NCBI GenBank assembly: GCA_964517065.1
Contig: CAZFBK010000001.1
Span: 41,734 to 105,733 of the forward strand
Length of the DNA: 64,000 bases
Source of the DNA: an uncultured Gammaproteobacteria bacterium
GTDB lineage: Bacteria; Patescibacteriota; Patescibacteriia; UBA1558; 2-01-FULL-52-15
Direction of reading: 5' to 3'
Part shown: one piece after another, positions 24,109 to 60,244 of the stretch
How positions within the stretch are numbered: position 1 is the stretch's first letter
How the letters are laid out: every line of letters starts with the position of its first letter
Position numbers and translations under genes: made by a program
Notes under the pieces: generated by a model
Seen by the model: only the letters and a program-made list of their open reading frames with translations
Told to the model about the DNA's origin: nothing
Databases searched by the model: none

Positions 24109-24201
24109 AAATCAGGGTCAGGATAAAGGGTCAGGGAGTCCAAATTCTCTATCCTTATCTTCAAACCCTGACCCCGACCCTAATCCCTAACCCTTAATAC
24201 T

Positions 24202-24660
24202 ATGGATCTCAACAAAGTCATGTTAATCGGCAACGTTGTCCGCGATCCAGAGATGCGCACCACTCCCACCGGCCAACAAGTAGCCTCCTTCGCGATTGCC
24301 ACCAACCTGGTCTGGACAGATAAAAACGGCCAGAAGCAAAAGAAAGCCGAGTTCCACAACGTCGTGGCTTGGCGCAAACTAGCAGAGATCATCGGACAGT
24401 ATGTGAAGAAAGGCAGCAAAGTCTATATGGAAGGCCGTTTGGAAACACGTAGTTGGGACGATCAGAATGCTGTCAAGCATTACCGAACTGAAATAGTAGC
24501 TGACAATCTTATCCTACTCGATCGAGCAGGCAGCGTACCACAAGGTCAGACCCCGACTACGGACAATAGCCAACCAACCTATAGTCCTATTCCTCAGACA
24601 GCTCCTGCTCCTGAAGACGTCGGTAGCCAAGAAATCAGTGTAGATGATATACCGTTTTAA
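24202..24660 (+). CDS. ssb: Single-stranded DNA-binding protein
   Basis: OB-fold N-terminus MDLNKVMLIGNVVRDPEMRTTPTG. Acidic C-terminal tail ending DDIPF. Confidence 0.9.
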   Translation: MDLNKVMLIGNVVRDPEMRTTPTGQQVASFAIATNLVWTDKNGQKQKKAEFHNVVAWRKLAEIIGQYVKKGSKVYMEGRLETRSWDDQNAVKHYRTEIVADNLILLDRAGSVPQGQTPTTDNSQPTYSPIPQTAPAPEDVGSQEISVDDIPF

Positions 24661-24759
24661 TAAGCAGGGACAGGGTCAGAATTAAGGGTCAGAAGGCCCT
24701 CACATTCACCTACTCAAACCCTGACCCCGACCCTAATCCCTAACCCTAATAAATTACTT

Positions 24760-30118: not shown

Positions 30119-33100
30119 TAGTTTGTCGGTGCTTTAATTTTGATAACATCGTCACTTCCTCCGCCACCATAGACTACATCTGCCGAGCCAGAGCAACCGC
30201 TACCTACCGCGCTCCAGAGATTATTAGCACACCAGCCCCAATTGTCTTGAATACTAACTCTCGGTTTGAAGCAAGCATAGCCAGCCTCACAACCAGCGGT
30301 ATAGTTCGAATCATAATGATAGACATGGAAGTAGTTGCGAATACCTTCTTCACAGGCTTGTGGTGTACCGGCGAAATCCAGAGTACTGCCGTTGCCCCAG
30401 GTATAGTTGAAAGCTAATGGTTGGAAATTCGAAATTGTACTAGTGGTCAAAGCTAAGGCAGGATCGCACTGGGGCCAGTTATTCTTATACAATCCAATGT
30501 TACTCTGCACCGAGCCATCACCCCAATCAATCTTGATACTACGGATCGGCATATGATCTTTGTAGGCCATGGCGAAGAAACTAATATTGGCTAACAAATT
30601 TGGCTTCTTATCTTCTGTGATCGTGCCGTTGGTCTGTCCATTGACGGTGAAATTACCAACTTTGCCGAGTGTACACTGACCGGAGTCAGAAGCACAAATG
30701 GCTTCAGCGATGATAGGACCGAAGTTAGTATCAGCATAATATTTGGAATCGTGTGATTGCGTGCCCTGCGCTGAAGATGATGGCATAGTAGCATCCAATG
30801 GTAAAGCCTTCGAGGCCACAGCATTCGCACTTCCATAATCACAGTTTGGGTCAGTGTCTGGATTACATAATTTCTTATACGTGTCTGGTTGGAAGGTACA
30901 ATACGGCTGACCTTCACATGTCTGTCCATTCAGACAGTCAGCATCGATAGAACAGGTTGTTTTCGAAATGGAGCAACGTTTATCTGCATAAGTTGTAACT
31001 TGACTTGCAAGCTTACATTTAGCATCTGGAGCCTGACAAATTTGATTTCCGCTATTATCAGTCTTATAACCATCGAGCTTCTGTCCCAGTGCATTGGTAG
31101 TGTCATCGTAGCAATCCTGAGGGTTTTTGAACCAACGATTAGCGGCATTCTCATCAAAAGCAGGGCCGACACAAAGATGCGCATTCGCTGGGGCACAGAA
31201 GGTCGCTTTATTCAAAGTTGGTATTTTAGAAGTACAATCACTCACCGTACTACATTCTATTACTGTCCAACCATTACCACCAAGCACTGTGTCATGACAC
31301 AAATCTTTACCACGACCATTGTCAGCGCACTCCATGTGAGCTGTCGAAGCTTGACAGACAGTTGTTGAGCTTGGGGGCACATAAGCACAAGTGTAACGAT
31401 TGTTCTCAACTACCGAGCAATCCTTTTGTGCCACCACTGTTCTATTAGATTCGGTCATATAGGGTGTACAGGCTGACAAACAGGACAATTCGTTAGAGAA
31501 CGTCGCTTCGCATTGACCATTCGAATTAGCAATAAATCCCGAGGCACAGGTGATGCCACATGATCTATTACCCCAGGGTGAATTAATACAATTTGAAACT
31601 GCAGTACATTTATTTTCTTCCTTCGATATAACACAGGCACTATCATTAGAACAATTCTCTCCGCCGTATAATTTACTATCACAAACACTATAGACACAGG
31701 TGTTACCGAGTGTATAACGATAAACCCCGAAAACTCGCTGGAATATTGAACGTAAGTTTATGATACCGTCGGCGTAGGTCTGGTATGGTTGATCCACCTT
31801 ACCAAACTTCCCTGGCGTCATCCACCCATCAACATAAACCCGACTACCCTTCTGACCTAATAACCCGCAAATACCGTCATCGTTTGCACAGACATAGGGA
31901 CTACCCGCTCGCGGTACGGTTCCGATCGATTTCAAATCTAAACGAGGGAAATCAGAGGGTTCAAGGCCAGATGATGGTACAGCTGAGCCAAAAGGAGCTG
32001 CGTCTTGATTTAAAGTGTAATTTGGAGCGCCGCTTGTTCGGGGGTCAGAACTAATTTTATAAGTATCGCCGTTAGCCAATTTGAAATCACTCCAGAAAAG
32101 ATTCGTAATAGCAGCATTGTCACCCCGAGGAGTTACAGCTTGAGCCAGATAGCTACAAGCGGCATACGGCTCAGAATCACCAAAGAATGTTCGACCAAGC
32201 AGTTGCGAGTGATTATTAGCGTCAGTGTATTGAATACGTAATGTTTCACGATCATAATCAGCCTCACACTGGTCTGTTAGTCTATATCGATTACCGTCGA
32301 ACCCATCTTTGACATCGACGATATTACCAACACAATTATCGACTGTTCGCCAACCGCTGCCGTCATTAATTTGAGAAATTGGTAACACAGCAACCGGATG
32401 GTCAATGCCACTGAATATGCCTCCTCCGCAGTTCTGACCTAGCTCATATGCAAAATACTTACCGTCAATTACACGACGTTGATCCTTCAGGCCGGCCCCA
32501 TGAACAGTTGGATCTTCTGTTGAGTTACTATCTAATGCTTGCCCATTTGCATCCACTTTAATGAAAGTTCCCGGTTTTTCAATATCCGAAGCACTATCAA
32601 GACAATCAATTGTAAACTTTCGACGAATTTCTTTGACACCTACTTCAGCACAATAATAGGCCGGAGCTTTATAGGAATAACCTGCTTCACGGTATTGATT
32701 AAAGTAATCTGTACCTCCCGGTGCGATATCGACTGGCAACCAAGACAAACAAGCGTACTGTGTCGGAGAAGCATTGATATGGGTACTGGTATCTGGCTCC
32801 AGACAATATCCCGGCCAGTTCAGATAAACATCGCTACGTCGCAGTTGAATAGGGTTACCGCCCGGACATTGGGTATCAATCGAGGTGGTATTAGTTTTGT
32901 CATTAACATTCTCAACTGTTTTGCAGGCAGAACCATCCAAACTTCCGCCGTCGCAAATACAGGTCGGTACTTCGGTACCGCCCAGAGGACCATTGATAGA
33001 ATAATATCTGACAGCTGATGTTCCTCCATACTGCATTTTGTAATACCCTGTCTCACAGGAAGCGACGGAGCTGTCGCAGATGTTGGCCTGCTGAAATCCA

Positions 33101-36100
33101 AAAGTAACTTTCCTGGTGGAGCTCTGTGCCCCACTGGACAAGCTCTGGGGGAAAGGGGCATCTTGCTCAGCATAAGCGCGGGTAGAAACTTTCAGCACGA
33201 ACGGTGAGATCGGATCAAACCTACTACCGTCAATACCGACAGCACATTCGGCCTTATCATTATGATTGAAGACTCTACCGATATCTCCGGGGCCGCATTT
33301 GGCATAGCCGGTGTCTCCATACTGACTGCCTGAGCCATTCGGATCTGTACAAGCACCAGTACTACTGACACAGTCAACGAACTTGACTAGGCGATAGTCA
33401 GGCTTGAGAGGATCCGGTCCGTCTTTTTTGGCATTGATACTGATATCCAATAAATGCATATTATCTACCGGGTAGCGATTGTACATCGACATACCAGAAT
33501 AATCAGTTGCCTGATAGCGGGTATCGCGAGTGACATAGCTAGCATAATCCAGCTTGGTCTGACTCTCCGGTAGCCAGTTGGCACAATTCAGTAGATCGCC
33601 GCTGGTACTATACTTATCGCATAGTCCAACTTCTGAGCAAATCTGTCGGTAGCCTTTGGTCTGCGGGTCAAAGATCTGGGAGCTACTCTTGCAAGCCAGC
33701 CACTGTGAACATTCACGATCACGATTAACTTTGATCACCCTGTTTGCATCATTGGTACAATCATGGAGTTGCTGATCCGAGGAGCTCTGATCACAGACAA
33801 CAGGACTGACAGGCTTACCGCCGGCCTTATCGCTAGCCAGATAGGTCAGGTAGCTGTTGTACGTTTTGTTGCTGTCATTGACATCGTCAAACAAGATACA
33901 GCCATTATTTTTACTGACCTGACCATTGCAGGTACTGTCATCGATATTGTCATTATTGAGGTAGAAATAAGATTTGACCTTTCGCAGACTGACATTCGAG
34001 AACTCTACCTTCGAGGCGCCACCGCAGGTACCACCACTGCAGGCGGTCAAGACAGGATTACAAGACTGACCACTATTGGTACAGGCCGTATTGAAACAGT
34101 TAGGATTGTTCTCGTTATTCGCACCGGCTGGACAGCCAGTATTTGACTGCTGATAATAACCACTGGAGACACGGAAGGTTGGCTCGCAGTAGATCAGCTC
34201 ATCCCCTTGTGAATCAGAGCCAATGTTCGCCACGACGTTCAGACTTTGAATACCGTCTCGCTTCTTGATATCGGCCCCGACATAGTACTCTGTCAGATGA
34301 TCACGACGATTGTTTTGTGAATCGGTTGATTGGTAGCCAAAGTTCGTTTCGCAGGTATAGCCGGCTCCCAGTGAGGAACAACGACTGTTATTGGTACAAG
34401 CTACATTGGTTTTATCAGTATTGCTCTGACAGTAGCCTTGCGCTGCTTTGTAACAGAAGTTATTACCGCCACCACACTGGTCACTAGTAGTACAAGGCTT
34501 GGTATAGTCTACTGTTACATCAAAGCCAGTGCCAACGATACCGCAATAATCCTGATCATAGGGACTATCCCAGACACAGCGCATCACAGCCTGTACAGCA
34601 CCACCGGATTTGTCATCGGCGAAAAAATTATCTATCCTGACGTCCGCACTGAGATTGTAGGTCTCAGTATTCTGCATCTTCAGATTGGTCTGCGGATCCT
34701 GAGTGAACAGTCTCTGGAAAAACAATCCCGTGCCCGTTGGATTGGTAGTAATAGTGGCAGTACCCCCATTGGCATTGAAGGTGGCAGCACTGTTCAACGT
34801 GTTTCCATAAGCACTCCAACTAGCCCAACCGGCGACACCGTTAGCAAAGGTGGCATTGGCAAAAAGATTCTCCCCGTCAGTAGCCTGCGTATCCACGAAT
34901 TCTGAACATTGATTCTGACTAGCAGGGCAGGTGCCGACCCAACCGCCGTAGAGTGGGTCTGCCGTCGGATGAATTACAAACTGATCTTCGGTGAATGGAG
35001 GGATACCTTGGGAATAACAACCAATCGGTGTCTGACCCGGTAGCAGACTCTCAGTCTGGAACCAGCCATTGAAAGACACCCCCTGAATACTGACGCCTTC
35101 TTTATAGGTACAGGTACGATTGTAGGGATCACGGTAGAAGGCCGATTGACCGCTGGCATCAGAATATTCTTGGCAGAACAATCCAGAATCCTGACATAAC
35201 TGCTGATCATAGCGATCAGGATCATTGATTTGGAAGACAGGGGTATATGATCTCACATAGTCTGGATCAGTCTCTGGTAGATCACGGTTAAAGGTCGGCC
35301 TACCCATCAGGGTACAGCCTTGATAGCTAGCTGAGCAGGATTTCTTCTGATCTATGACAACGTACTCCAACGCATCTGCCGGTACGGTGATCTGAGATTT
35401 GTCACCAGCATGATACATCTGCTGATAGGGAGAATTAGAGTTCTGGGTATTGACCACAGCCTGACAACCGACTGCCTCCTGACGACAAATCTGTGAGAAC
35501 GTACGGAGCGTCACGGTAGAATTATTCGGTCCTTTATACTCCTGACATCCCAGATTGGCTCCGACGAACGGTTGGTCACAGCTGGCAGGTGTGCTCCAAC
35601 TATTAGCCACCACAGTGAGGTTGCTGACCGATTCTTTCAAAATAATATTATCGACAAACACCTTCGGGCTGGCTTCCAGCTGCAACAACACCGCGTCGCT
35701 GGCCATAACTTCATCAACTTGAAGCGGTCCAAGCTGATATGGCTGCCAGCCAGTCGTCGGCTGGATCGGACTGACATTGGCAGCAGTGAATTCGCAGACG
35801 CCACCGTTACATTTGGTCTGACTGCCGTCAAACTTACCGAGGAAAGCTTTGAACTCTGTACCGGCTGTCTCAGCTTTGAGCCAGAAGCTAAGATAATATT
35901 CTCGTCCCGGAACTATTGAAGTGCCTTCGGAACGACTGACAACACCGGAAGTCCAGGACATGGAATGTCCGCCGGAATTGGTTGATTCAGCTGAGTATAT
36001 AGGAGTAACTGTTCCAGCCTGCCACGGTTGATATGAACCAGACTCAAAGGTGTCATTACTGACCTGACGCAGATTGTTGCCTTGGTTACCGCGGAATTCG

Positions 36101-39100
36101 GTACAACCGACGGCAGCTGCCGAGCAGGTTCGGCTTTCTTTATCCAGACCACTATACACTACTCCGCTACTACGGCGTAATGGATGACAGTTGCTATCAG
36201 CGAAAATAACTTTATCCTGCAAACGGAATTTGGAAACACCATCAGTGTCGAAGAATTCACGACAGTTTGGATCGGTACTGACATCGCCAGCCTGACAAGT
36301 CGCCTGTGTCGCTGCTGTGTCCTGACAGGTGGTGCCGCCGGGTGCCACGTTGGTACACGGACCGCCGTCAAGATTGCTCTTCAGTACCTGCCAGGTGCGG
36401 ACTTGGAAACCACTGGTATCACTACCTTCGAGTGTATAATAAGTAATACCAAAATTAGCAGCTACACACTGACGCAAGAAGCTATAGTAATGTTTACCCT
36501 CGCCACCAGCAGCTACTTCGTCCAAATTAGTGAAAGCACTACAACCAATATCAGTGGCGTTACATTGTTTGGCGCTACTAGCAATAAAGTTTACATTAGT
36601 CGAAGCTGCCGTTGGCTGCTCCATGGTTTCAAAAGCAGTTGGTAACTGTATATAGGTCTGATAGCCGACACATTCGGCGGGACAACGATCAGCATTCGTC
36701 ACGACACCCGGCACAGTAGGGCCGCCATTTGTTGGGCTGTACAGATTACAGCCAACTTCTTCAGCTTTGCAGCTGAAACGAGTACCATTGAGATACACTT
36801 TGCCTGCGCTACCATAATCATTGTAATTCGATGGGCTTGATCCCGGCTCAACTTTGACACCATCGATGTAGAGAGCTCCACAGCCAGCCAGTGATCCGAG
36901 GAAGACGGTCAACTGTTGATCAGGATTATCGAGATCAAAAGTATGCGTCAACTGAAAGCGTTGCCAATCGCCGGTATAATTCACCTGAGCACTGACTGCT
37001 GAGGTACTCTGAGAACCAAGTGCTGCATTCGCAGTACAGGCTGTCGTAACCTTACCATACCAAGAGAGCGTATAAGTGGCGCCAACCAGACGACCAGCGA
37101 CTGCCGTAGCAGATAGCTGTCCATCACCAACAAGCTTAATCGCCGAAGATCCAATATAGGAGTTATCCCCTGCAACGGTATAGGCATTAAAGTTTGTACC
37201 ATTAGCCGTCCAACCGCTGAAGCTGTCAGGCAACGTATCATTGATATAGTCACCGTTGGTTTTGTCGGTATCAATATTCAGCTGATAAGTATCAAAATTA
37301 CCGTTGGCCAAGAGATTGATACCGCCTGTCTGCGGATTGATAAACTCCTGACAGCCGGCATCCTGCTGGGAACAACTGGTTACTTTGTTATTGAGATAAA
37401 TACGGTCATTAGGATTCCACTGGTAATTTGGGTTAGCAGCTGTACCGGTATTTTCCTGATTGAGACTGTACCATGAGCAACCTGCCTGTCCGGCGTCGCA
37501 AGATTCCAAAGTATTCTGCAGATAGCTGTATTTGGCGCCATTATCACGACGAGTGAAAACCTGACAGGATGAATACTGCTCCTGACAGGACTCACCGCTG
37601 AAGCGCCAGATATTACGCTCTTGGGTACAATAGCCATATCCCCCAACGCAATTACCTTTGCTATCTTGTGCCAGACACGAAGGACGATCGACACAGACTT
37701 GCTGACGTTGATTACTAGTGACATCTTCCAATGTCGGACCGTATACCAGAGCTTTGCATTGGGTGGATGGCGCTGTCAGTACCCAATTTGGATCAATCAA
37801 ATGATAGAAAATATTAGCAACTGGGTCGAGGATACATTTCGGTCCATTATCGAAACAGTTCACGACCTCACCGAGTGTCACCGGCCGAGAGACAGGACTG
37901 AGGGCAGCAGCAATCTCCCAACCGAGTGGTAAGATACGATAACTACGCAGACGGGCAATATTTCCATAACAATAGCCATTTTGGAAACAGCTCTTATCTC
38001 CATTCTGTGAAGCGTTGAGATAGGATATCAATGGACGATCGGCTTGCAGATGTCCCTGAGCCAGAGCCTGAGCAACTGTTTCTTTATTATTAATGGCCGC
38101 CAAAAAGGTATTATCAATTGTACAATTATCCGGCTGAGCCAGTTTGCGATCTGGCGGACAGGCGGTCAAATTTTGCAAATAATCGAATTCGTCAATTTGC
38201 TCCACGTTGACTGTTTTCAAATCAGCGAAAAGCTCAGAGGCGGAGCCGAAGCGACGTAAATCAACTTTATTACGCAACTGGTTGATCAAAGAATCGCGTA
38301 GATTGGTCGTTCCGCCACCGTAGAGGTTTGATAATGACCAACTACCACTAATATATTTATTTAATAACTTAGCCGTTAATGATCTCGAAAATAACTTGGC
38401 GGCATTGATAAAGACGTCTTCTGTTTTGATCAATGAAGCTTCTAATAAAGCATCTCGATAGGCGTTCTCATCGATACCCATGACCTTCGCGCAGTGGACC
38501 AAAACATCATCAGAGATCTTAGCTCCTTTATCTTTGTATCCTTTGCAGGTCTGCTCGCTAATCTTGGCTACATCCGCTGCTAATTGAGCTCGTCGGTCAG
38601 CCTCACCGGTCAACTGCAAAAAAATCCCCAGATCATTTTGGTTCGGATCCACCAGCATACCGAGCAGACCTGTTCGCTGATTGGTCGACAAACCAACCAT
38701 AGCCTGTGCTAGCCATTGTCCTGAATCAAGTGACTGACCAAATTTTTTCCAATTTTCTTTAATCTGATTCAGTTCACATTTTGGCGGTTTCGGTGCCTGA
38801 CCGCCAATGTCAGAGATCACTCCTAAGGTGATATTCACCTGAGTATCAAGTGACGGAGCGCAGAGGTTCAAACCTGATCCTTTGAAAAAATCTTCTGACA
38901 AATTACCAATGAAATCACCGTAAGCAGCATCCCGTGAATCGTTCAGAACGCGCGCAAATTCTTTGGTTCTGACCAAAGGCTTCAGACCCACCCCTCCCTG
39001 AGCAATGAAGGTGGCAGTGTTATAAGCTAGATTATTTAGATACGTTTGCAAGGTAGTCTGAAACAGACTCTGGCCAATGATTTTATAATTACGCTCAAAA

Positions 39101-39318
39101 ATTGCAGAAATTTTATCAAACAGAACTTGCATCCGGTCTTGAGTCGGTATACCGCCAGGAGCCGAAGCGCCCAATGCTCCAAGAGCTCCGGATAGATTCG
39201 TGCCAGAATCTAAGGGAGGTGGAAGTCCCACCTGAGCTAAGGCCGGCGAGTAACTTAAGCCAACTAGAAAAAAACTGAGAATGAATACTAGGCTAGTAAA
39301 CTTAGAAAATAATTTCAC
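30118..39318 (-). CDS. Giant (3066 aa) secreted cysteine-rich repeat protein. Probable surface adhesin or host-interaction protein.
   Basis: Uninterrupted 9.2-kb ORF. Signal peptide MKLFSKFTSLVFILSFFLVGLSYSPALAQV. Hundreds of Cys in recurring C-x(4-8)-G-C-x-(E/W)-(F/Y) modules (for example CDAGQAGCSWY, CSAAAVGCTEF, QQDAGCQEF, CRQEAVGCQAV). No catalytic motif recognised. Confidence 0.75.
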   Translation of the reverse strand: MKLFSKFTSLVFILSFFLVGLSYSPALAQVGLPPPLDSGTNLSGALGALGASAPGGIPTQDRMQVLFDKISAIFERNYKIIGQSLFQTTLQTYLNNLAYNTATFIAQGGVGLKPLVRTKEFARVLNDSRDAAYGDFIGNLSEDFFKGSGLNLCAPSLDTQVNITLGVISDIGGQAPKPPKCELNQIKENWKKFGQSLDSGQWLAQAMVGLSTNQRTGLLGMLVDPNQNDLGIFLQLTGEADRRAQLAADVAKISEQTCKGYKDKGAKISDDVLVHCAKVMGIDENAYRDALLEASLIKTEDVFINAAKLFSRSLTAKLLNKYISGSWSLSNLYGGGTTNLRDSLINQLRNKVDLRRFGSASELFADLKTVNVEQIDEFDYLQNLTACPPDRKLAQPDNCTIDNTFLAAINNKETVAQALAQGHLQADRPLISYLNASQNGDKSCFQNGYCYGNIARLRSYRILPLGWEIAAALSPVSRPVTLGEVVNCFDNGPKCILDPVANIFYHLIDPNWVLTAPSTQCKALVYGPTLEDVTSNQRQQVCVDRPSCLAQDSKGNCVGGYGYCTQERNIWRFSGESCQEQYSSCQVFTRRDNGAKYSYLQNTLESCDAGQAGCSWYSLNQENTGTAANPNYQWNPNDRIYLNNKVTSCSQQDAGCQEFINPQTGGINLLANGNFDTYQLNIDTDKTNGDYINDTLPDSFSGWTANGTNFNAYTVAGDNSYIGSSAIKLVGDGQLSATAVAGRLVGATYTLSWYGKVTTACTANAALGSQSTSAVSAQVNYTGDWQRFQLTHTFDLDNPDQQLTVFLGSLAGCGALYIDGVKVEPGSSPSNYNDYGSAGKVYLNGTRFSCKAEEVGCNLYSPTNGGPTVPGVVTNADRCPAECVGYQTYIQLPTAFETMEQPTAASTNVNFIASSAKQCNATDIGCSAFTNLDEVAAGGEGKHYYSFLRQCVAANFGITYYTLEGSDTSGFQVRTWQVLKSNLDGGPCTNVAPGGTTCQDTAATQATCQAGDVSTDPNCREFFDTDGVSKFRLQDKVIFADSNCHPLRRSSGVVYSGLDKESRTCSAAAVGCTEFRGNQGNNLRQVSNDTFESGSYQPWQAGTVTPIYSAESTNSGGHSMSWTSGVVSRSEGTSIVPGREYYLSFWLKAETAGTEFKAFLGKFDGSQTKCNGGVCEFTAANVSPIQPTTGWQPYQLGPLQVDEVMASDAVLLQLEASPKVFVDNIILKESVSNLTVVANSWSTPASCDQPFVGANLGCQEYKGPNNSTVTLRTFSQICRQEAVGCQAVVNTQNSNSPYQQMYHAGDKSQITVPADALEYVVIDQKKSCSASYQGCTLMGRPTFNRDLPETDPDYVRSYTPVFQINDPDRYDQQLCQDSGLFCQEYSDASGQSAFYRDPYNRTCTYKEGVSIQGVSFNGWFQTESLLPGQTPIGCYSQGIPPFTEDQFVIHPTADPLYGGWVGTCPASQNQCSEFVDTQATDGENLFANATFANGVAGWASWSAYGNTLNSAATFNANGGTATITTNPTGTGLFFQRLFTQDPQTNLKMQNTETYNLSADVRIDNFFADDKSGGAVQAVMRCVWDSPYDQDYCGIVGTGFDVTVDYTKPCTTSDQCGGGNNFCYKAAQGYCQSNTDKTNVACTNNSRCSSLGAGYTCETNFGYQSTDSQNNRRDHLTEYYVGADIKKRDGIQSLNVVANIGSDSQGDELIYCEPTFRVSSGYYQQSNTGCPAGANNENNPNCFNTACTNSGQSCNPVLTACSGGTCGGASKVEFSNVSLRKVKSYFYLNNDNIDDSTCNGQVSKNNGCILFDDVNDSNKTYNSYLTYLASDKAGGKPVSPVVCDQSSSDQQLHDCTNDANRVIKVNRDRECSQWLACKSSSQIFDPQTKGYRQICSEVGLCDKYSTSGDLLNCANWLPESQTKLDYASYVTRDTRYQATDYSGMSMYNRYPVDNMHLLDISINAKKDGPDPLKPDYRLVKFVDCVSSTGACTDPNGSGSQYGDTGYAKCGPGDIGRVFNHNDKAECAVGIDGSRFDPISPFVLKVSTRAYAEQDAPFPQSLSSGAQSSTRKVTFGFQQANICDSSVASCETGYYKMQYGGTSAVRYYSINGPLGGTEVPTCICDGGSLDGSACKTVENVNDKTNTTSIDTQCPGGNPIQLRRSDVYLNWPGYCLEPDTSTHINASPTQYACLSWLPVDIAPGGTDYFNQYREAGYSYKAPAYYCAEVGVKEIRRKFTIDCLDSASDIEKPGTFIKVDANGQALDSNSTEDPTVHGAGLKDQRRVIDGKYFAYELGQNCGGGIFSGIDHPVAVLPISQINDGSGWRTVDNCVGNIVDVKDGFDGNRYRLTDQCEADYDRETLRIQYTDANNHSQLLGRTFFGDSEPYAACSYLAQAVTPRGDNAAITNLFWSDFKLANGDTYKISSDPRTSGAPNYTLNQDAAPFGSAVPSSGLEPSDFPRLDLKSIGTVPRAGSPYVCANDDGICGLLGQKGSRVYVDGWMTPGKFGKVDQPYQTYADGIINLRSIFQRVFGVYRYTLGNTCVYSVCDSKLYGGENCSNDSACVISKEENKCTAVSNCINSPWGNRSCGITCASGFIANSNGQCEATFSNELSCLSACTPYMTESNRTVVAQKDCSVVENNRYTCAYVPPSSTTVCQASTAHMECADNGRGKDLCHDTVLGGNGWTVIECSTVSDCTSKIPTLNKATFCAPANAHLCVGPAFDENAANRWFKNPQDCYDDTTNALGQKLDGYKTDNSGNQICQAPDAKCKLASQVTTYADKRCSISKTTCSIDADCLNGQTCEGQPYCTFQPDTYKKLCNPDTDPNCDYGSANAVASKALPLDATMPSSSAQGTQSHDSKYYADTNFGPIIAEAICASDSGQCTLGKVGNFTVNGQTNGTITEDKKPNLLANISFFAMAYKDHMPIRSIKIDWGDGSVQSNIGLYKNNWPQCDPALALTTSTISNFQPLAFNYTWGNGSTLDFAGTPQACEEGIRNYFHVYHYDSNYTAGCEAGYACFKPRVSIQDNWGWCANNLWSAVGSGCSGSADVVYGGGGSDDVIKIKAPTN

Positions 39319-41380: not shown

Positions 41381-42543
41381 AACAATAAATAAAGGAAGGA
41401 AGCTAGCCCCGCAACAATGAAGCTAATAGCAAAAGCCGACTGAACATCAGTCACAAACATAAAGATAACCGACAAAAGCATGATGATGAGCAACTTACCA
41501 ACTACCAGACCAGATTCAAACTTTACAATACTTTCTAAAATACTTGTGCGCTTGGCTCGACTATAAGTAATGGAGGTCAGGGTGACAGAGATAATATTTT
41601 TAGCCAGCCACGACAGTGAGCCAGCCAGAAATACTCCTGTAACCGTTCGCACGATCAGCTTGATAAACCAACTAAAAGCATAGATGACGGTACCAAGTCG
41701 CAAAACTGGATGGCGATGATGATGATCTGACCACCTACCTGCTATCATTGTCACGGCGACAGAGACCAAAACGGTAGCTCCGATGACTACACCGACATCA
41801 AATTCATTAACGATCATTATAGAGATAAAAATCGGCCACAGAACTAGAGCTACAAACTCTTCGGCAAATCCCATGTAGGCAAACAGCTGTCGACGATTAG
41901 CCACAGAAAATAGCTCTATAAATGAATGACGGTAGGAAAAGCTCGTTGGCTGGAATTTTTCGGGTGAGCTGAGTAAGGGAATATTTGATAATAAAAAGAT
42001 GATGGAAACAACGAGGAACATTAGAGGATAGCCGCCCAATAAAATCAGTACGCCAGCCGCGACAGGCCCAAGAATGAATAATAACGAGGTTGCTACCGTC
42101 AGCGTGCTGATCTCCCGAGCGTTCTCTATCTCTTTTATGTTCTGAGCAAAATCAGCATGAAAAGCGGGCCAATAAAACATTTTTTGTAGGGCATAAAGTA
42201 ACGCAGCTACATAAAAAAGTGGCGCATAGACAGGTATAGCAAATAAAGATAGGTAGAGCGCTACCATGAACACCGTACTTATAACAATGCTCTTTTCATT
42301 ACCATAGCGAGCAGTAAACTTCGCACCCAATGGAATCAACAAGAGATACAAAGCGTAGACAATGCCATAGAATAATAAAATCCACTGTAAATCATAGCCA
42401 ATACTATAAAGGTAGATCGGTTCAAACATCTGCACCATGGCCAAACCAAGGTTCATCAAAATAGTAGAGAGGTAGAGTTCTTTCACCTCTCGGCGCATTT
42501 GGTGTGGTAGAAAGGTGCCGAGATAACGGATTCTACGATGCAT
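41377..42543 (-). CDS. Multi-pass membrane transporter, MFS-like
   Basis: 388 aa with about 10-12 predicted TM helices. No specific signature identified. Confidence 0.5.
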   Translation of the reverse strand: MHRRIRYLGTFLPHQMRREVKELYLSTILMNLGLAMVQMFEPIYLYSIGYDLQWILLFYGIVYALYLLLIPLGAKFTARYGNEKSIVISTVFMVALYLSLFAIPVYAPLFYVAALLYALQKMFYWPAFHADFAQNIKEIENAREISTLTVATSLLFILGPVAAGVLILLGGYPLMFLVVSIIFLLSNIPLLSSPEKFQPTSFSYRHSFIELFSVANRRQLFAYMGFAEEFVALVLWPIFISIMIVNEFDVGVVIGATVLVSVAVTMIAGRWSDHHHRHPVLRLGTVIYAFSWFIKLIVRTVTGVFLAGSLSWLAKNIISVTLTSITYSRAKRTSILESIVKFESGLVVGKLLIIMLLSVIFMFVTDVQSAFAISFIVAGLASFLYLLL

Positions 42544-43159
42544 AGTATGATTTCGGGATGATAATGCTACCTGCGCGCAGGATCTCTAAACCACTATCGC
42601 TAATCCTGACAATGGTGCTCGCCGGCTGTTTTATTAATTCACCGGCATCGATGATCAGATCGGGTACGGATGATCTATTGGACAGCTGTGCGATCATATC
42701 TTTAACGCTATAAACGGCTGGTTGGCCGGCAATATTTGCAGAAGTAGAGATCAATGGCCGTGCCACAATACGAGACAAATCATGAGCCAGTGGATGTGAA
42801 GAAATACGCAATGCCAAAGAATCTGAACTAAAAAAACAATTAATCGTCAAAAATTGCAGGGGTAAGACCAAAGTCAATGGACCGGGCCAAAACTTCTGAG
42901 CCAACCGATCGGCTACCGGCGTAAACCTCACCAAGACACGCGCTTGATGTTCTGTACCAACGATAACTGGGAAAGACTTGTCTTTGGGGCGAGATTTGAT
43001 CGCCAAAATTCTTTTGTAGGCTTTGTCAGAAAAAAAGTCACCACCAAGCGCGTAAGAAGTCTCTGTCGGGTAGACTACCGTACCACCACGCTCGATCACT
43101 TCCTGTGCCATAGCCAATACCTGCGGGCGGTTATTAGAATTTAGTTTGATAATCTGCAT
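42533..43159 (-). CDS. tsaC: L-threonylcarbamoyladenylate synthase TsaC/YrdC family
   Basis: VVYPTETSYALGGD motif. Start trimmed to the internal Met (MQIIKLNS...), so the ORF no longer overlaps tsaE. Confidence 0.75.
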   Translation of the reverse strand: MQIIKLNSNNRPQVLAMAQEVIERGGTVVYPTETSYALGGDFFSDKAYKRILAIKSRPKDKSFPVIVGTEHQARVLVRFTPVADRLAQKFWPGPLTLVLPLQFLTINCFFSSDSLALRISSHPLAHDLSRIVARPLISTSANIAGQPAVYSVKDMIAQLSNRSSVPDLIIDAGELIKQPASTIVRISDSGLEILRAGSIIIPKSYYAS

Positions 43160-43226
43160 GAAAAAAAGTTCGGGCGATTCATGAATCTCCCTAATAGTAT
43201 AGCATGTCTCTCTTATTTTTGATTTT

Positions 43227-43655
43227 TCAATTGAGCAAAATTGCCCGCTCCGTCTCACTGCGTTGTTCCACTTGAATACGGATCACCCCATGCGGCAAAA
43301 TCTCCTTCACGGTATCACCCCACTCGATGAGCACCACGGTATCAGGCTGTCCTAGATAATCTCCCAGACCAATATTTAATAATTCTGCATGTCCAGCCAG
43401 ACGGTAAGCATCGACATGCACCAGATTTTGGATCTTACCCCTACGACGAACTGGGTACACCTTCATCAAAACGAACGTCGGACTGTTGACCACTTCTGTC
43501 ACGCCTAAACCTTTGGCGATCGCTTTGCTGATCACCGTCTTGCCAGCACCAAGATTACCTTCCAAAGAAATAACCTCCCCACCTTTCAAGGTGATAGCGA
43601 ATTTCTTGGCCCAGGCGATCGTGGCTTTTTCTGATGGTGAAATAAATTTATTCAT
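43227..43655 (-). CDS. tsaE: tRNA threonylcarbamoyladenosine biosynthesis ATPase TsaE
   Basis: P-loop GNLGAGKTVISKAIAKGLGV...VNSPTF. Confidence 0.8.
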   Translation of the reverse strand: MNKFISPSEKATIAWAKKFAITLKGGEVISLEGNLGAGKTVISKAIAKGLGVTEVVNSPTFVLMKVYPVRRRGKIQNLVHVDAYRLAGHAELLNIGLGDYLGQPDTVVLIEWGDTVKEILPHGVIRIQVEQRSETERAILLN

Positions 43656-43732
43656 ATTGTTCCCGTAGGGACAGGTCCTCGCCTCGCTAAAGCTTAGGCG
43701 CAGCGGGGCGGCCTATCCCTACAAAATGCAGT

Positions 43733-44788
43733 TCATGAATTGCCCAAACGCATTTGTGGATTAAATCGCAACGTCTTCCAATTAGTTTTCTGACCTTTAT
43801 CCTGACGATGGTAATAAGCCGCAGCAGCGATCATTGCAGCGTTATCACCGGTGAATTCTAATCGCGGAATCAGAACGGGCAATTCATGAATTGCCCCGAG
43901 CGCGCGCATCCTATTTCCTAATTCCTTATTGGCACTAACACCACCAACAACCATCAATGATTTTACCTGATACTTCAACGCTGCTTTTTCTGCTTTTTTT
44001 ACCAAGACATCACAGACAGCTGCTTGAAATGAGGCACAAATATTATTAATCTCCGGCACGGGCAATTCATGAATTGCCCCGCCGTTTTTCACCTGCTTCT
44101 GCACATAATACAGAACCGCTGTCTTCAGCCCCGCGAAACTAAAATCAAAATTATTCTTATTCAACATCGGCCGTGGGAAATCAATCGCCGTCGGATCACC
44201 GTCCAATGCCCGTTTGGAAACAATCGGTCCACCCGGATATCCAAGATTCAGGATCTTCGCCACCTTGTCGAAAGCTTCACCAGCCGCATCATCCAGTGTC
44301 TGCCCTATCAATTGATACTGCCCATGACCCTTCATCAAAACTAATTCTGTGTGTCCGCCAGAAACAACTAAGGCTAACGACGGAAATATCTTCTTATCCT
44401 CTTTGAATAGCTCCAGATAGGTCAGCCAGTTGGCATAGATATGCGCTTCCATATGATTGATCGGCTGTAGTGGTTTGTTCAATGCTAAGGCTAAAGCTTT
44501 GGCTGTCTCAGTACCGACCATCAGCGACGTGATCAAACCGGGTCCGGCCGTGACGGCGAAAAGATCCGCCTGCTTGATAGCTTTCAGTCCGATACTTTTG
44601 TCTAACAATGGCAATAGAACTTCTAAATGCATACGCGCTGCCATTTCTGGCACTACTCCACCGTATTTCGAATGAGTCGTAGCCTGTGAGGCGATGATAT
44701 GTTGCTGCAAATCAAAACCAACCTTAGTGACATTCAATAAAGCAAAAGATGTTTCATCACAGGATGTCTCGATAGCAAATATCTTCAT
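43733..44788 (-). CDS. tsaD: tRNA N6-adenosine threonylcarbamoyltransferase TsaD (Kae1/YgjD family). Carries in-frame palindromic insertions.
   Basis: MKIFAIETSCDETS N-terminus, FSFAGLKTAV, and C-terminal EFTGDNAAMIA. Start set at the internal Met; the ORF extends upstream to 44950. Two GAIHELPV insertions are encoded by a 20-bp palindrome. Confidence 0.8.
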   Translation of the reverse strand: MKIFAIETSCDETSFALLNVTKVGFDLQQHIIASQATTHSKYGGVVPEMAARMHLEVLLPLLDKSIGLKAIKQADLFAVTAGPGLITSLMVGTETAKALALALNKPLQPINHMEAHIYANWLTYLELFKEDKKIFPSLALVVSGGHTELVLMKGHGQYQLIGQTLDDAAGEAFDKVAKILNLGYPGGPIVSKRALDGDPTAIDFPRPMLNKNNFDFSFAGLKTAVLYYVQKQVKNGGAIHELPVPEINNICASFQAAVCDVLVKKAEKAALKYQVKSLMVVGGVSANKELGNRMRALGAIHELPVLIPRLEFTGDNAAMIAAAAYYHRQDKGQKTNWKTLRFNPQMRLGNS

Positions 44789-44864
44789 CAGAGAATAATA
44801 ACAGTTTTTAAAAAAGAAGTCCCCCGCCGTGATGCTGGCGGAGGACTTGTGGACTAGTGAACGC

Positions 44865-45140
44865 TCAGCACGTCGCATTGCGCCGATTGCACTGAACGGT
44901 GCCGTCGAAAACTTCGATGAACCCGCCCACCTTGAGCTCATCCAGATCAACCTGCATCAGACCAGACAGTATATCATCTTGGCCGTCGGTCGTGATGTAG
45001 ACTTGATCAAGTCCCTCATGTTGTGAGCGGGAATTGACCAGATAAGCCACCACTTCACCGATAAAAACCGGACGTCGTGGTGTCAGTGTTTGGATGACCG
45101 CCAACAACTTTTGCTGGCGGTCTTTCACGGGATTGGTCAC
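44865..45140 (-). CDS. Hypothetical small protein (GC-rich island, translationally coupled to the upstream ORF)
   Basis: 91-aa ORF. Local GC clearly above the genome background. ATGA overlap with the 135-aa ORF. Confidence 0.3.
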   Translation of the reverse strand: MTNPVKDRQQKLLAVIQTLTPRRPVFIGEVVAYLVNSRSQHEGLDQVYITTDGQDDILSGLMQVDLDELKVGGFIEVFDGTVQCNRRNATC

Positions 45141-45544
45141 GCTGTCTCTCCTGATGTAGAGGTCCTCCTCCGAACCTGCGGTCTTGTCAGTCGCCTAGAG
45201 GCCTTGATACAAGCCAATAGTTGTTTGACTAACTCCTCAAACCCTGCGACGAGTGGAACATCTTTGGCCGCCAGCTGCCCCATCTCGGTCGACGTCAGTG
45301 GCAGATCATGCCGCCATTCAAGATGCCCCACCGCAGGTTGCCGCAGACTAGTGACAGCACTCATAACCCGTGCTTGATTCATTTGGAGCGGCGGCGACTG
45401 ATGCGACAGAATCTGAGCAATCTGAGCACTTGTCGGATTTCTACCCTCCTGCTCGCAGGCAATCACGAGCTGCAAAACGAACATATCCCGATCCACTAAA
45501 ACAGTCGGCTGTGACGCCTTACCTGCCGCATCGTCGTTCTTCAT
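45137..45544 (-). CDS. Hypothetical small protein (GC-rich island)
   Basis: 135-aa ORF. No recognisable motif. Coupled to the 91-aa ORF. Confidence 0.3.
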   Translation of the reverse strand: MKNDDAAGKASQPTVLVDRDMFVLQLVIACEQEGRNPTSAQIAQILSHQSPPLQMNQARVMSAVTSLRQPAVGHLEWRHDLPLTSTEMGQLAAKDVPLVAGFEELVKQLLACIKASRRLTRPQVRRRTSTSGETA

Positions 45545-56008: not shown

Positions 56009-57529
56009 ATGAAAAAATTAAATAGCTCCCAATCAAGTCACCAGCTGGTGCCTTTTATTATTTTAATCCTCATCGCTGGACTGCTTAGCGCTGACATCTA
56101 TTTCTACTTCAAAGCTCATAAAGATAACACTGCTACTACCCTACCAACTGTCGCGACAAGCGATAACTGGAAAACCTACACCGACAGTGGCTTAGGTTTT
56201 CAGATTGATTATCCCGCTGACCAACCGATTGAATCCTATTTTAAAGACAATATCTTCTACACAGTTATAGGCACGATGCCCTATGAACCAGCTCCGGGAC
56301 TATTTACTATTGGGATGAAAAAAAATACCAGTGCAGAAGAGTACCTAGTACAAACGCAGAAAGATACCTCAGGTTGTAGCAAGTCAGAAGTTGTAACACT
56401 TAATAATCGTGATGCGATTTTTTATACCTGCGTCTCAGAATTCGCTGGCGACACTGTCGACAATTTCGTCATTGCCAGAAACAATAACATCTACCACCTT
56501 AGCTTCATGCTAGTACCACAAGGAACAACGGCCGAAAGCGTGAAGTTTGTCATTAGTCCGAATGATCAAAAAATGTTGGATAGCTTCAGTATAACTGAGC
56601 GCCTGACAGACTGGCAGTTGTATACCAACAGTGACTATGGTTTCAGTTTGCAATATCCTCAAGATTGGAAGCAAGAGAACTTCAAAGGAGGTATATCTGG
56701 CTGCTGCTTTACCGGCTCTGGTGTGGTTGCTATTGACTCGATAGAACAGCGACCTGGTGTTCATGAGGGCGAAGGTGAAGCATTGAGAATTTATTTAAAA
56801 GATATAACCCCAACTCAATACGCCACCGAATATAATACATTCAATAGAGTAGGTCTCAAAGATGCCGATTTTGTTGAGAAAAAACAGACAGAAACCTTAG
56901 CAGGTGTTGAAGTTACTCATTTAAGACTTGGCACTCCTATGGGCAGTTATTTCGAAGTTATCTTCTTTAAACAAGGCGTGCTGAAGCCTTTCTATATTGA
57001 ATACGATGATAATGATCCACTTCATCAGCAAATTCTTTCCACCTTCCGCCTCACTGACGATATGAGCGGATGGCAAACATATACGAATGAAAAATATGGT
57101 TTTAATTTTCAATATCCGTCTAATTGGAAGCAAATTAATTCGCCGACTTTTCTTCTTAATCTCTCGGAAAATGATCCATACAGTTACGATTTCAGCGGAG
57201 TGTTCATTAAAACAACAAATCCAACTACTATTGAAGATGCCTTGGCCAAGGCTATCATAGAATATAAGACCAAACTTGATGCTGATCCCGATTATCCTTC
57301 AAGCTATCCTAAATATACTGAACCAAAGGTCGTTGATTTTCATGGCCAGACAGCCATAAAAAGGTCTTATAAGACTTATGAAATAACTCCTCCAGGCACA
57401 GAATATATTTTACCCGAAAAGGGATTGATAATTACCATATCTGATTTATATGGAAATGGAAAAATATCCGTTGAGACAATGTCTACATTAAAGAATCAAA
57501 TCCTCTCCACCTTCAAATTTTTAAAATAA
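56009..57529 (+). CDS. Secreted/TM-anchored multi-module protein, array member 1 (three W.TYTN..YGF.FQYP..W modules, each ending ILSTFRLTDD or ILSTFKFLK)
   Basis: N-terminal TM. Repeated module boundaries at WKTYTDSGLGFQIDYP, WQLYTNSDYGFSLQYPQDW and WQTYTNEKYGFNFQYPSNW. Confidence 0.6.
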   Translation: MKKLNSSQSSHQLVPFIILILIAGLLSADIYFYFKAHKDNTATTLPTVATSDNWKTYTDSGLGFQIDYPADQPIESYFKDNIFYTVIGTMPYEPAPGLFTIGMKKNTSAEEYLVQTQKDTSGCSKSEVVTLNNRDAIFYTCVSEFAGDTVDNFVIARNNNIYHLSFMLVPQGTTAESVKFVISPNDQKMLDSFSITERLTDWQLYTNSDYGFSLQYPQDWKQENFKGGISGCCFTGSGVVAIDSIEQRPGVHEGEGEALRIYLKDITPTQYATEYNTFNRVGLKDADFVEKKQTETLAGVEVTHLRLGTPMGSYFEVIFFKQGVLKPFYIEYDDNDPLHQQILSTFRLTDDMSGWQTYTNEKYGFNFQYPSNWKQINSPTFLLNLSENDPYSYDFSGVFIKTTNPTTIEDALAKAIIEYKTKLDADPDYPSSYPKYTEPKVVDFHGQTAIKRSYKTYEITPPGTEYILPEKGLIITISDLYGNGKISVETMSTLKNQILSTFKFLK

Positions 57530-57533
57530 ACCT

Positions 57534-58622
57534 ATGCTCAACAAAAAATTCCAACATGGCAACACCTTCCTACCCTATCTCATCCTCGTCGTCATAGCCG
57601 GACTGGTCACGACCAATCTGTGGCTGTACTTCTGGAATCAGAAAGAGATAACTCCGTCACAACCCCAGTCGGTTGTTACTACAACCGATCCGCTGGCTGG
57701 TTGGCAGACGTATACGAACGGCCAATATGGGTTCAACATTAAATACCCGTCCAACTGGGTGGCCAAAGAAATTCCAAATCAAGAATACGGCGGAGTTGTC
57801 AATTTTTTCCAATCAGGTTCCAAAACATATCCTGAGCAGGGAGGTAGTCAGCCAATTGGGGAAAATTTAGTCACCTTATCTCTATTAAAAAACCCAAATG
57901 ATCTAACCCTACAACAGATATTTAACAACAATTACAATAAGTGTCTGCAGGAACCTAATAACGATTTTGGATGTCCGAGTCCGCAAAACACAGAGTCTTG
58001 GCAAACCATAACTGTTGATGGAGCAAAAGCCTGGCGAACCGGTGATACCGGCATACCTGAGGGACCGGGGGCGGATACGTTGTATATCAAACAAGACGGT
58101 TATTATATCGAGATGACATTAATGTTGTTCGAACCAGTCCGAAAAAATATTGATACAGCCATATTAGATCGAATGATTTCCACCTTCCGCTTCACTGATG
58201 ATATGAGCGATTGGAAGATTTATAAAAATGAGAAGCTCCACTACCAAATACAACTCCCAACTGGCTGGTGGATCAACGAACAAAAAGATTTTACCCAAAT
58301 CCTACCACCATCAATCGAAAAAGAAGTTTTACCTTCTGGAGCTGGCTTTGGAGGTGCGCAAAGTGATCAGCCAATTATAACTATCTCTCGTGTTGTGGAT
58401 CTGGAGCTCGGTGAGACGATGCACAATATTCAAGATGAAAGAAAAATTACGATCGATTCTATTGAGTCAAGCCAAAGGCAAGAGAATGGAAGTTTTGGTA
58501 ATAGTATAAATACCTACATCCCTCTAGGTAAAAACTATATAAAATTTAGCTGGGATTTAATTTCAAAACCTAGTGACCCTGCTCTAGAACAAATCCTCTC
58601 CACCTTCAAATTTATAAAATAA
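57534..58622 (+). CDS. Array member 2 (two modules)
   Basis: WQTYTNGQYGFNIKYPSNW and WKIYKNEKLHYQIQLPTGWW. Ends ILSTFKFIK. First 60 codons about 90% nucleotide-identical to member 3. Confidence 0.6.
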   Translation: MLNKKFQHGNTFLPYLILVVIAGLVTTNLWLYFWNQKEITPSQPQSVVTTTDPLAGWQTYTNGQYGFNIKYPSNWVAKEIPNQEYGGVVNFFQSGSKTYPEQGGSQPIGENLVTLSLLKNPNDLTLQQIFNNNYNKCLQEPNNDFGCPSPQNTESWQTITVDGAKAWRTGDTGIPEGPGADTLYIKQDGYYIEMTLMLFEPVRKNIDTAILDRMISTFRFTDDMSDWKIYKNEKLHYQIQLPTGWWINEQKDFTQILPPSIEKEVLPSGAGFGGAQSDQPIITISRVVDLELGETMHNIQDERKITIDSIESSQRQENGSFGNSINTYIPLGKNYIKFSWDLISKPSDPALEQILSTFKFIK

Positions 58623-58626
58623 ATCT

Positions 58627-60234: not shown

Positions 60235-60244
60235 TTCAAAAGAC

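Follow-up and report, generated by a model that had tools for sequence, protein, structure and literature searches.

Palindromes matching the core of a double-foot REP family in tsaD and the t6A operon of a member of the Patescibacteriota

The tsaD gene encoded in a 64,000-nt stretch of DNA from an uncultured Gammaproteobacteria bacterium (Patescibacteriota; UBA1558; 2-01-FULL-52-15 in GTDB; assembly GCA_964517065.1, contig CAZFBK010000001.1, positions 41,734-105,733) carries two in-frame copies of a 20-bp perfect palindrome, GGGCAATTCATGAATTGCCC, and further, degenerate copies lie close by in the same N6-threonylcarbamoyladenosine (t6A) operon. The stretch, which is the visible 64 kb of the organism's genome, will be named hereafter the window. 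Judged by its sequence, the palindrome is the core of a published 'double-foot' repetitive extragenic palindromic (REP) element, presumably of a mobilizable family. One of the two tsaD sites corresponds to an extra loop of the protein, the other adds no length, and at the codons of the latter related species carry different palindromes. The reading that we favour, with a probability of about 0.6, is that REP cores devoid of their feet occupy slots in the t6A operon, are tolerated in surface regions of TsaD, and are homogenized locally by copying at the DNA level, probably through short-patch templated conversion.

The palindrome copies and their REP family

The two perfect copies (43877-43896 and 44060-44079) are 183 bp apart, in frame in tsaD on the minus strand, and both read G-A-I-H-E-L-P-V, as residues 298-305 and 237-244, respectively. 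Identity between them spans 24 bp (ACGGGCAATTCATGAATTGCCCCG, ACGGGC...GCCCCG; repeat family D4), that is, it ends 2 nt outside the palindrome. Coordinates and translation thereby bear out the preliminary description of this DNA, which had reported two perfect in-frame copies at this distance (GAIHELP) as well as a third, partial copy supplying the C-terminal LGNS and the TGA stop of tsaD. The third copy extends in full over 43726-43745 with 17/20 matches, and its central TCATGA gives tsaD the stop codon (43733-43735). The C-termini of orthologous genes differ (RLARSQ-stop, RLVSSL-stop, RLVS-stop), and several of these genes use the TAG of a GTAG foot as their stop. A fourth copy (43172-43191), additional to those described earlier, is located in the tsaE-tsaC spacer, with a conserved CATGCTATACTAT box on one side and the ATG of tsaC on the other. 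It is preceded on the coding strand by TTAGGG, and in the window ~24 nt stand here in place of ~12 nt in the spacers of the relatives L121 and L123.

All four copies thus fall in the t6A operon, the remainder of which consists of tsaE and a tsaC/Sua5-like gene, within 0.9 kb (43172-44079), and no further copy of the 20-mer is present in the other 63 kb of the window. No match to the 20-mer was obtained in 100 shuffled windows, and only ~0.06 perfect 20-bp palindromes are expected per shuffled window. A window-wide excess of palindromes was considered and rejected, as the number of 12-16 bp palindromes is close to that in shuffles. An assembly artefact was rejected as well, given that both perfect copies recur in an independently assembled Logan contig (L143) with 99.77% identity to the window over 4762 bp.

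In a scan of one genome per species (596 Gb stated), the exact 20-mer was found at at least 120 loci in many phyla, where arithmetic from the 596 Gb gives a chance expectation of ~0.5 matches. The hosts among the matches listed include Nostoc, Chamaesiphon, Pseudanabaena, Omnitrophota, Chloroflexota, Planctomycetota, Nitrospirota, Desulfobacterota and Patescibacteria. The canonical element is a 28-bp perfect palindrome, GTAG-GGGCAATTCATGAATTGCCC-CTAC, of which the 20-mer is the core: among the matches listed, 70 of 122 copies have exact GTAG...CTAC flanks, GTAG being present in 78 and CTAC in 90, and the second commonest flank pair is GTAA...TTAC. Nineteen viral contigs carry the element as well, and the copies can be as dense as 10 in 14.8 kb (L152). 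At four loci (L013, L022, L091 and L093) an IS200-like Y1/HUH gene lies beside it, with the 28-mer flanking two of these genes (L013 and L093). The encoded proteins match Pfam Y1_Tnp and NCBIfam REP_Tyr_transpos ('REP-associated tyrosine transposase', RAYT), the latter with 59.8 bits, which is below the model cutoff of 80, and their motifs (PNH[FIM]H, WQRNYYEH and YIxNNP-like) fit subclass 2.4 of TnpA_REP. This subclass (Bertels group 4) is associated with 'double foot' REPs having 5' GT[AG]G and 3' C[TC]AC feet and three G-C pairs at the bottom of the stem (Quentin et al. 2018, PMC6006769); it includes REPs located in frame inside tnpA_REP and is found in Cyanobacteria, Bacteroidetes and scattered phyla (PMC6006769).

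Location in coding sequence is not peculiar to tsaD. Among the fetched loci, 12 of 124 copies lie in long open reading frames (ORFs), always in the only open frame of the 28-mer (VGAIHELPL), a bias explained by the TAG or TGA contained in its other two frames. Pfam confirmed the host genes as those of glutamate synthase GltB and SelA, with the element in an interdomain linker and in a linker, respectively, of a ResIII helicase and of a transaldolase. The last of these, a transaldolase-family ORF of Omnitrophica (L067, MHFR01000042.1, 2-1432), is the closest analogue of tsaD, with three in-frame REPs within 700 bp (VGAIHELPL, VGAIHELPL and AGAIHELPL). At several Nostoc loci (L001, L018, L020, L029, L069 and others), the 28-mer is central in larger inverted repeats ending ...GGACTTACGCAAA / TTTGCGTAAGTCC..., i.e. 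it is within a longer unit resembling a miniature inverted-repeat transposable element.

Insertion, replacement and palindrome types at orthologous sites

The tsaD DNA of 11 relatives (L121-L128, L140, L141 and L142; 65-90% protein identity) was fetched and codon-aligned with that of the window, and TsaD proteins were aligned for 19 sequences (the window and 18 orthologs), with Thermotoga maritima TsaD (PDB 6NAK/6N9A) as a separate reference. Source accessions are GCA_964487895.1 for L123, GCA_964360835.1 for L124, GCA_964540995.1 for L125, GCA_043801745.1 for L126 and JGI 3300020186 for L128; the Logan accession for the organism of the window is SRR12762303. A metagenome scan for close TsaD relatives returned a single close locus, a duplicate of L128, along with distant ones. 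Site 1 is a lineage-specific extra loop, ~10 residues longer than T. maritima TsaD and 7-9 codons longer than most Patescibacteria orthologs. In an AlphaFold (AF2) model of the window protein (mean predicted local distance difference test score, pLDDT, 85) it forms a loop between helices 219-234 and 244-273, with a local pLDDT of ~72. Site 2, in contrast, shows zero gap in the 19 sequences and relative to the T. maritima protein, and in the model it runs from the final turn of helix 288-301 through a turn into the beginning of a strand (pLDDT >90). By these alignments, seven codons have been rewritten in place at site 2 with no insertion. The earlier statement that the palindrome had been 'inserted' twice is therefore valid for site 1 only.

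Across the relatives, the codons of site 2 carry a variety of palindromes. Perfect 20-bp palindromes with the same centre are present in L123 (GGGTAACCCTAGGGTTACCC), L122 (GGTCAACCCTAGGGTTGACC) and L126 (GTAG-GGACAACCCTAGGGTTGTCC-GTAC), while that of L128 (GGTAC-GGACAGGTCGCGACCTGTCC-GTACC) is perfect over 30 bp and is located two codons upstream. L124 has a near-perfect palindrome (GGCAATTCATGAACTGCC) of the window (TTCATGAA) type, L121 and L125 have degenerate CCTAGG-type sequences, and no palindrome is found at site 2 in L127, L140, L141 and L142. That is, a palindrome is located at the same codons in 8 of 12 orthologs, and in every tsaD having one it is the best palindrome of the gene. Such unrelated palindromes at the same codons make it unlikely that the element is the target of a sequence-specific nuclease or regulator, a possibility that had been raised in the preliminary description. 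The changes in the two arms are correlated: 7 of the 10 pairs have changed on both sides, doubly changed cells number 20 versus 6.1±2.0 in shuffles (0 of 500 shuffles reach the observed value), and the covariation score is 0.47 versus 0.06-0.18 for controls with slid partners. G·U accounts for 7 of the 33 non-Watson-Crick cells and is not enriched (~17% expected), and in each of the five perfect copies self-complementarity continues through the apex (CATG, CTAG and CGCG).

At site 1, the window and its sister L121 (GGGCAAGCCTAGGTTTGTCC) have the same outer stems and flanks, the difference being confined to the inner 8-10 nt (TTCATGAA versus GCCTAGGT). The core found at site 2 of L128 also exists as a canonical REP, GTAG-GGACAGGTCGCGACCTGTCC-CTAC, in another Patescibacterium (L004), 60 nt from a canonical TTCATGAA 28-mer and between convergent genes, and it occurs in viral contigs too. 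For the CCCTAGGG type, no footed family was found outside this clade. The idea that AACCCTAGGGTT ('type 1') is a widespread footed REP was not supported, six viral-contig matches to GGNNAACCCTAGGGTTNNCC being mostly without GTAG/CTAC feet, and the AACCCTAGGGTT type may be local to this clade. A neighbour-joining (NJ) tree has the topology (window,(L121,L122)),L123, then L128, then L126. On this rough tree, the CCCTAGGG type would be ancestral at site 2, L128 and the window would have switched type independently, and L124 would have gained the type of the window separately.

The palindromes of the operon fall into a limited number of 'slots': site 2 of tsaD, site 1 of tsaD, the 3' end of tsaD together with the tsaD-tsaE spacer, and the tsaE-tsaC spacer. 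Slots within a genome agree in type. The window has the TTCATGAA type four times (sites 1 and 2, stop, and tsaE-tsaC spacer), whereas L128 has the GTCGCGAC type (type 2) three times (site 2, tsaD-tsaE spacer and tsaE-tsaC spacer). In L125 there are three CCTAGG-like copies (sites 1 and 2, and GGCCAACCCTAGGGTTGGCC in the spacer), and in L126 GGACAACC...GGTTGTCC is common to site 2 and the spacer element. In most relatives the tsaD-tsaE spacer contains a palindromic element headed by GTAG, the TAG of which is often the tsaD stop; the corresponding hairpin in the window (43665-43722) is the sole GTAG..CTAC-footed element within the 64 kb and is predicted to fold as RNA with -37.6 kcal/mol (z = -4.2). 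Coordinates of the window features are given in Table 1.

Table 1. Palindrome copies and genes of the t6A operon in the window
Feature	Position	Strand	Description
Site 1	44058..44081	-	perfect 20-bp palindrome 44060-44079 plus 2 common bases per side; encodes G237-V244
Site 2	43875..43898	-	perfect 20-bp palindrome 43877-43896 plus 2 common bases per side; encodes G298-V305
Degenerate copy, tsaD 3' end	43726..43745	-	17/20 match; different frame, R-L-G-N-S-stop
Degenerate copy, tsaE-tsaC spacer	43172..43191	-	GGGCGATTCATGAATCTCCC; 17/20 to the 20-mer, 9/10 arm pairs; GGGCGATTCATGAATCGCCC subtype
REP-like hairpin, tsaD-tsaE spacer	43665..43722	.	58 nt, GTAGGG...CCCTAC; long form of the GGACAGGTC..GACCTGTCC type
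tsaD (351 aa), host gene	43733..44788	-	PF00814, 288 bits; intact, every family-invariant residue kept
tsaE	43227..43655	-	PF02367, 122 bits
tsaC/Sua5-like	42533..43159	-	PF01300, 154 bits

The spacer element itself varies in form. It is long in the window (43665-43722), L123 (4057-4110) and L128 (4030-4134) and a short 28-mer in L124, and in L123 it is inverted relative to the window and L128. By comparison of these sequences, the forms are compatible with a REP dimer that underwent inversion of its spacer and deletion of its centre. Other differences concern the neighbouring regions of the operon. A long, conserved and apparently structured non-coding stretch follows tsaE in L124 (2662-2995), L125 (4561-5149) and L127 (1570-2113), with the blocks GCGCCTCGG...CTAAAA...GATCTAGGT.ATGTC.CCTAGA...GGTGGTATCTCT; it is absent in the window, and no Rfam family matches it in these three relatives at the gathering threshold. 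In L142, an ORF with a GIY-YIG domain (4140-4430) lies between tsaD and tsaE, maybe a homing-endonuclease-like insertion in the same operon.

A comparable situation was observed inside the subclass 2.4-like RAYT genes, in which a REP lies in frame at a common position downstream of the HUH motif (L022, ~6104-6121; L093, 5794-5811; L091, 2409-2426). The internal REP is GGGCAATTCATGAATTGCCC (type 3) in L093 and L091, whereas L022 has GTAG-GGGCGTATTGCAATACGCCC-CTAC (GGGCGATTGCAATACGCCC-class), read RGVLQYAPT. This internal slot is a second case in which the same slot holds different palindromes.

Three features elsewhere in the window are recorded here. A perfect 34-bp direct repeat, TCAAACCCTGACCCCGACCCTAATCCCTAACCCT (family D10), brackets an ORF (24202..24660) at 24161-24194 and 24714-24747, and from its sequence it resembles duplicated ends, or duplicated target sites, of a small unit that was inserted. 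Positions 30118-39318 are taken up on the minus strand by a single ORF of 3066 aa. Tandem paralogous genes with repeated 3' ends (a 252-nt repeat with 85% identity and a recurring ...CCACCTTCCGCTTCACTGATGATATGAG... block; families D1-D3) are located at 56994-60237.

Proposed copying between slots and the alternatives

The site-2 series and the agreement between slots point to a copy-conversion route, whether by template switching or by strand exchange through an HUH enzyme. Site 1 would have originated when the element inserted in frame into a surface loop; site 2 would have arisen and later changed type, its length remaining constant throughout. Copying at the DNA level would then keep the slots within each genome alike and perfectly palindromic. 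The most likely process would be short-patch templated conversion, in which replication would switch template between hairpins lying close to each other, and an alternative process would be RAYT cleavage and strand transfer exchanging the interiors of hairpins. In the lineage of the window, an older AACCCTAGGGTT-type palindrome may have been replaced by the TTCATGAA type at both tsaD sites. The copies could persist by virtue of their one open frame, (V)GAIHELP(L), and of residues at which TsaD tolerates variation. We infer the copying mechanism, and likewise the neutrality of the copies for TsaD, from the patterns described above.

Template switching is known to homogenize the arms of inverted repeats and to invert spacers (PMC8604942, PMC7202029). 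We favour it here because it is length-neutral, homogenizes arms and inverts spacers, and because it accounts for the local distribution of the copies, for identity ending 2 nt outside the palindrome and for the missing feet. Cleavage and strand transfer by TnpA_REP do occur in vitro, and they require the GTAG motif (PMC8266576).

Several points weigh against this interpretation and should be considered together. Neither GTAG nor CTAC feet are present on either strand at the two perfect window copies, of which the coding-strand flanks are CTCG/GTTC and GGCG/GTGC; feet are present nearby in the spacer element at 43665-43722 (GTAGGG..CCCTAC), and among the orthologs L126 has GTAG at site 2. No RAYT-like ORF was detected in the window by tblastn with a RAYT-like protein (E<1e-3). 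The 64 kb show neither a RAYT gene nor dispersed copies as a source of the TTCATGAA type. Template switching would have to act over 183-900 bp in this organism. The NJ tree that orders the events is rough, and selection is another possible reason why 8 of 12 orthologs have retained a palindrome at the codons of site 2. In addition, tsaD is a mosaic: codons 1-80 are 93-97% identical to L121/L122 and the rest ~75-85%, and over codons 200-230 the closest sequence is that of L125 (88-93%), otherwise a more distant one. Such mosaicism, as read from the alignments, implies recombination among these Patescibacteria lineages, and allelic recombination could explain some of the type 'switches'.

A first alternative is that the palindrome is a selected structural element, i.e. 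a hairpin at fixed places in the tsaD mRNA, a DNA cruciform or a protein-binding site kept by selection, which could tune the decay, processing or translation of tsaD-tsaE-tsaC. REPs do affect mRNA stability and termination (PMC3733652, PMC8266576), and both the occurrence of a palindrome at the same codons in most of the orthologs and the compensatory changes in its arms would be in line with such a role. The perfect window copies fold as an 8-bp stem with a 4-nt loop and GGG...CCC ends, and the predicted hairpin at site 1 is stable (-20 kcal/mol, z = -3.8). However, the context of site 2 is no more stable than shuffles (z = -0.35), palindromy through the apex in all five perfect copies is not needed by an RNA hairpin, G·U pairs remain at chance level, and four of the relatives have no palindrome at site 2. 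The swapping of unrelated types among orthologs also excludes a binding site for a sequence-specific regulator or nuclease. An Rfam scan of 42400-45200 (E<=1) gave no match overlapping any copy, the only hit being a weak and unrelated one to Hrs13 (45043-45127), and a promoter/terminator scan flagged the palindromes merely as 'terminator-like' consensus matches, in numbers not above those in shuffles. Given the self-complementary apex, the lack of G·U enrichment, the unremarkable stability of the site-2 context and the absence of any relevant Rfam match, we prefer copying at the DNA level to a selected RNA hairpin, and regard the structural explanation as unlikely.

To a similar degree unlikely is pure mobile-element insertion, in which each copy would be an independent event mediated by a RAYT or another transposase that preserved the frame by chance. 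The preliminary description had proposed a miniature palindromic mobile element, and this holds in so far as the 20-mer belongs to the GTAG 'double-foot' REP family, cognate with RAYT/TnpA_REP subclass 2.4, and is elsewhere found in frame in genes. The family can be multi-copy over short distances, as in L152 and in the transaldolase-family ORF of L067, and both site 1 and the tsaE-tsaC spacer copy add length. The proposal does not extend to site 2, which adds zero length relative to either the orthologs or T. maritima TsaD and is no insertion, nor does it sit well with copies that lack the GTAG foot, a motif experimentally required for TnpA_REP activity (PMC8266576), and that are all clustered within 0.9 kb in a window having no dispersed copies and no RAYT gene.

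Less probable again would be allelic import, whereby homologous recombination would have brought the AIHELPV segment of site 2 from a divergent L124-like tsaD allele and site 1 from an L125/L121-like allele. In the vicinity of site 2, identity of the window is 78% to L124 and only 55-65% to its closest relatives, and the mosaic structure of the gene, with the L125-like codons 200-230, goes in the same direction. However, import would leave unexplained the 24/24 identity between sites 1 and 2, the exact match to a REP core across phyla and the two extra copies; moreover, the L124 copy is imperfect (GCGGCAATTCATGAACTGCCC), and the flanks do not have the length required for a significant recombination test. 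Finally, selection at the protein level for a GAIHELPV peptide motif, suggested by the same eight residues at two places in TsaD, can be dismissed, since the codons are identical over 24 nt, unrelated proteins with the REP in their genes all contain this peptide too, and ortholog DNA encodes GVTLGLPV, GSTLGLTV, GTTLGLSV or TGRDLSV at the site.

Relation to known palindromic elements and implications

The elements are of a known kind, i.e. GTAG/double-foot REPs already on record in frame in genes, and they do not represent a new system. What is new is the Patescibacteria tsaD host, the foot-less cores, the length-neutral replacement, and the switching of types at orthologous codons with concerted slots. 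Like the subclass 2.4 double-foot REPs (PMC6006769), the family has the characteristic feet, three G-C pairs at the bottom of the stem, a perfect palindrome, and a distribution over Cyanobacteria and scattered phyla. It also shares with them the in-frame REP inside tnpA_REP (L093, L091 and L022) and proteins with NH[IFV]H / WQ / YIxNNP-type motifs. Unlike those REPs, the two perfect window copies are foot-less, all window copies are clustered within 0.9 kb with no tnpA_REP seen in the window, and one of them is a length-neutral replacement.

GTAG/CGTC REPs have previously been described inside genes for known proteins, sometimes with two per ORF and with pseudouridine synthases among the hosts (Di Nocera, De Gregorio & Rocco 2013, PMC3733652). 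They were interpreted as insertions adding 20-30 residues, possibly neutral owing to their location in linkers or loops (PMC3733652). The tsaD case is similar in that short tagged palindromes are found in genes and in that hosts include genes for RNA modification, but the survey contains neither length-neutral rewriting nor type switching at orthologous codons, nor Patescibacteria. A full-text search for the sequence or the peptide found no paper, and the text and supplements of PMC3733652 are also without the sequence.

With respect to template switching, site 2 resembles the products described for quasipalindromes (PMC7202029, PMC8604942): multi-nucleotide changes produce complementary arms with no change in length, and the spacer can be inverted, in keeping with the tsaD-tsaE spacer element, the orientation of which differs between the window and L123. 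Site 2 shows the clustered, arm-compensated multi-base changes at constant length by which such products are recognized. Unlike in the classic cases, in which one arm of the same repeat is copied, the inner sequence here has also been swapped from one palindrome to another, and it matches that of a dispersed REP family. The features of a cis-regulatory RNA hairpin are not found in spite of the covariation, the apex being self-complementary, G·U being at chance level and Rfam giving no overlap.

A further parallel is provided by the Rickettsia palindromic elements (RPEs), to which PMC3733652 also refers. These selfish repeats, likewise palindromic, are known from essential genes, where they are inserted in frame and the protein tolerates them at its surface. 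To our knowledge, RPEs are ~100-150 bp long, are restricted to Rickettsia, and are always insertions. The element in the window measures 20-28 bp, is unrelated to them in sequence, and is inserted at site 1 only, so that the two are alike in behaviour only.

Identical 28-mers shared across phyla have practical consequences, as they can seed spurious 'hypothetical proteins' (VGAIHELPL) and, for genes such as tsaD, can lead astray alignments and tests for recombination or selection. As for the biology of the family, the dissemination of REPs is still described as unresolved (PMC8266576). In the species compared here, sister species hold three different perfect REP cores at the same codons of an essential gene, at constant length, and with neighbouring slots matching. 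A tentative extension, to which we give clearly less credence than to copying between the slots of this operon, is that double-foot REPs can spread by overwriting instead of insertion, in which case a resident hairpin or quasi-palindrome 'slot' would have its interior replaced, length-neutrally, by a nearby active REP type. Should this be true, it would account for both the arrival and the persistence of REPs in essential genes; the site-2 series leading from CCCTAGGG to GTCGCGAC in L128 and to TTCATGAA in the window would be a natural record of the process, and the internal slot of the RAYT genes would be a second example.

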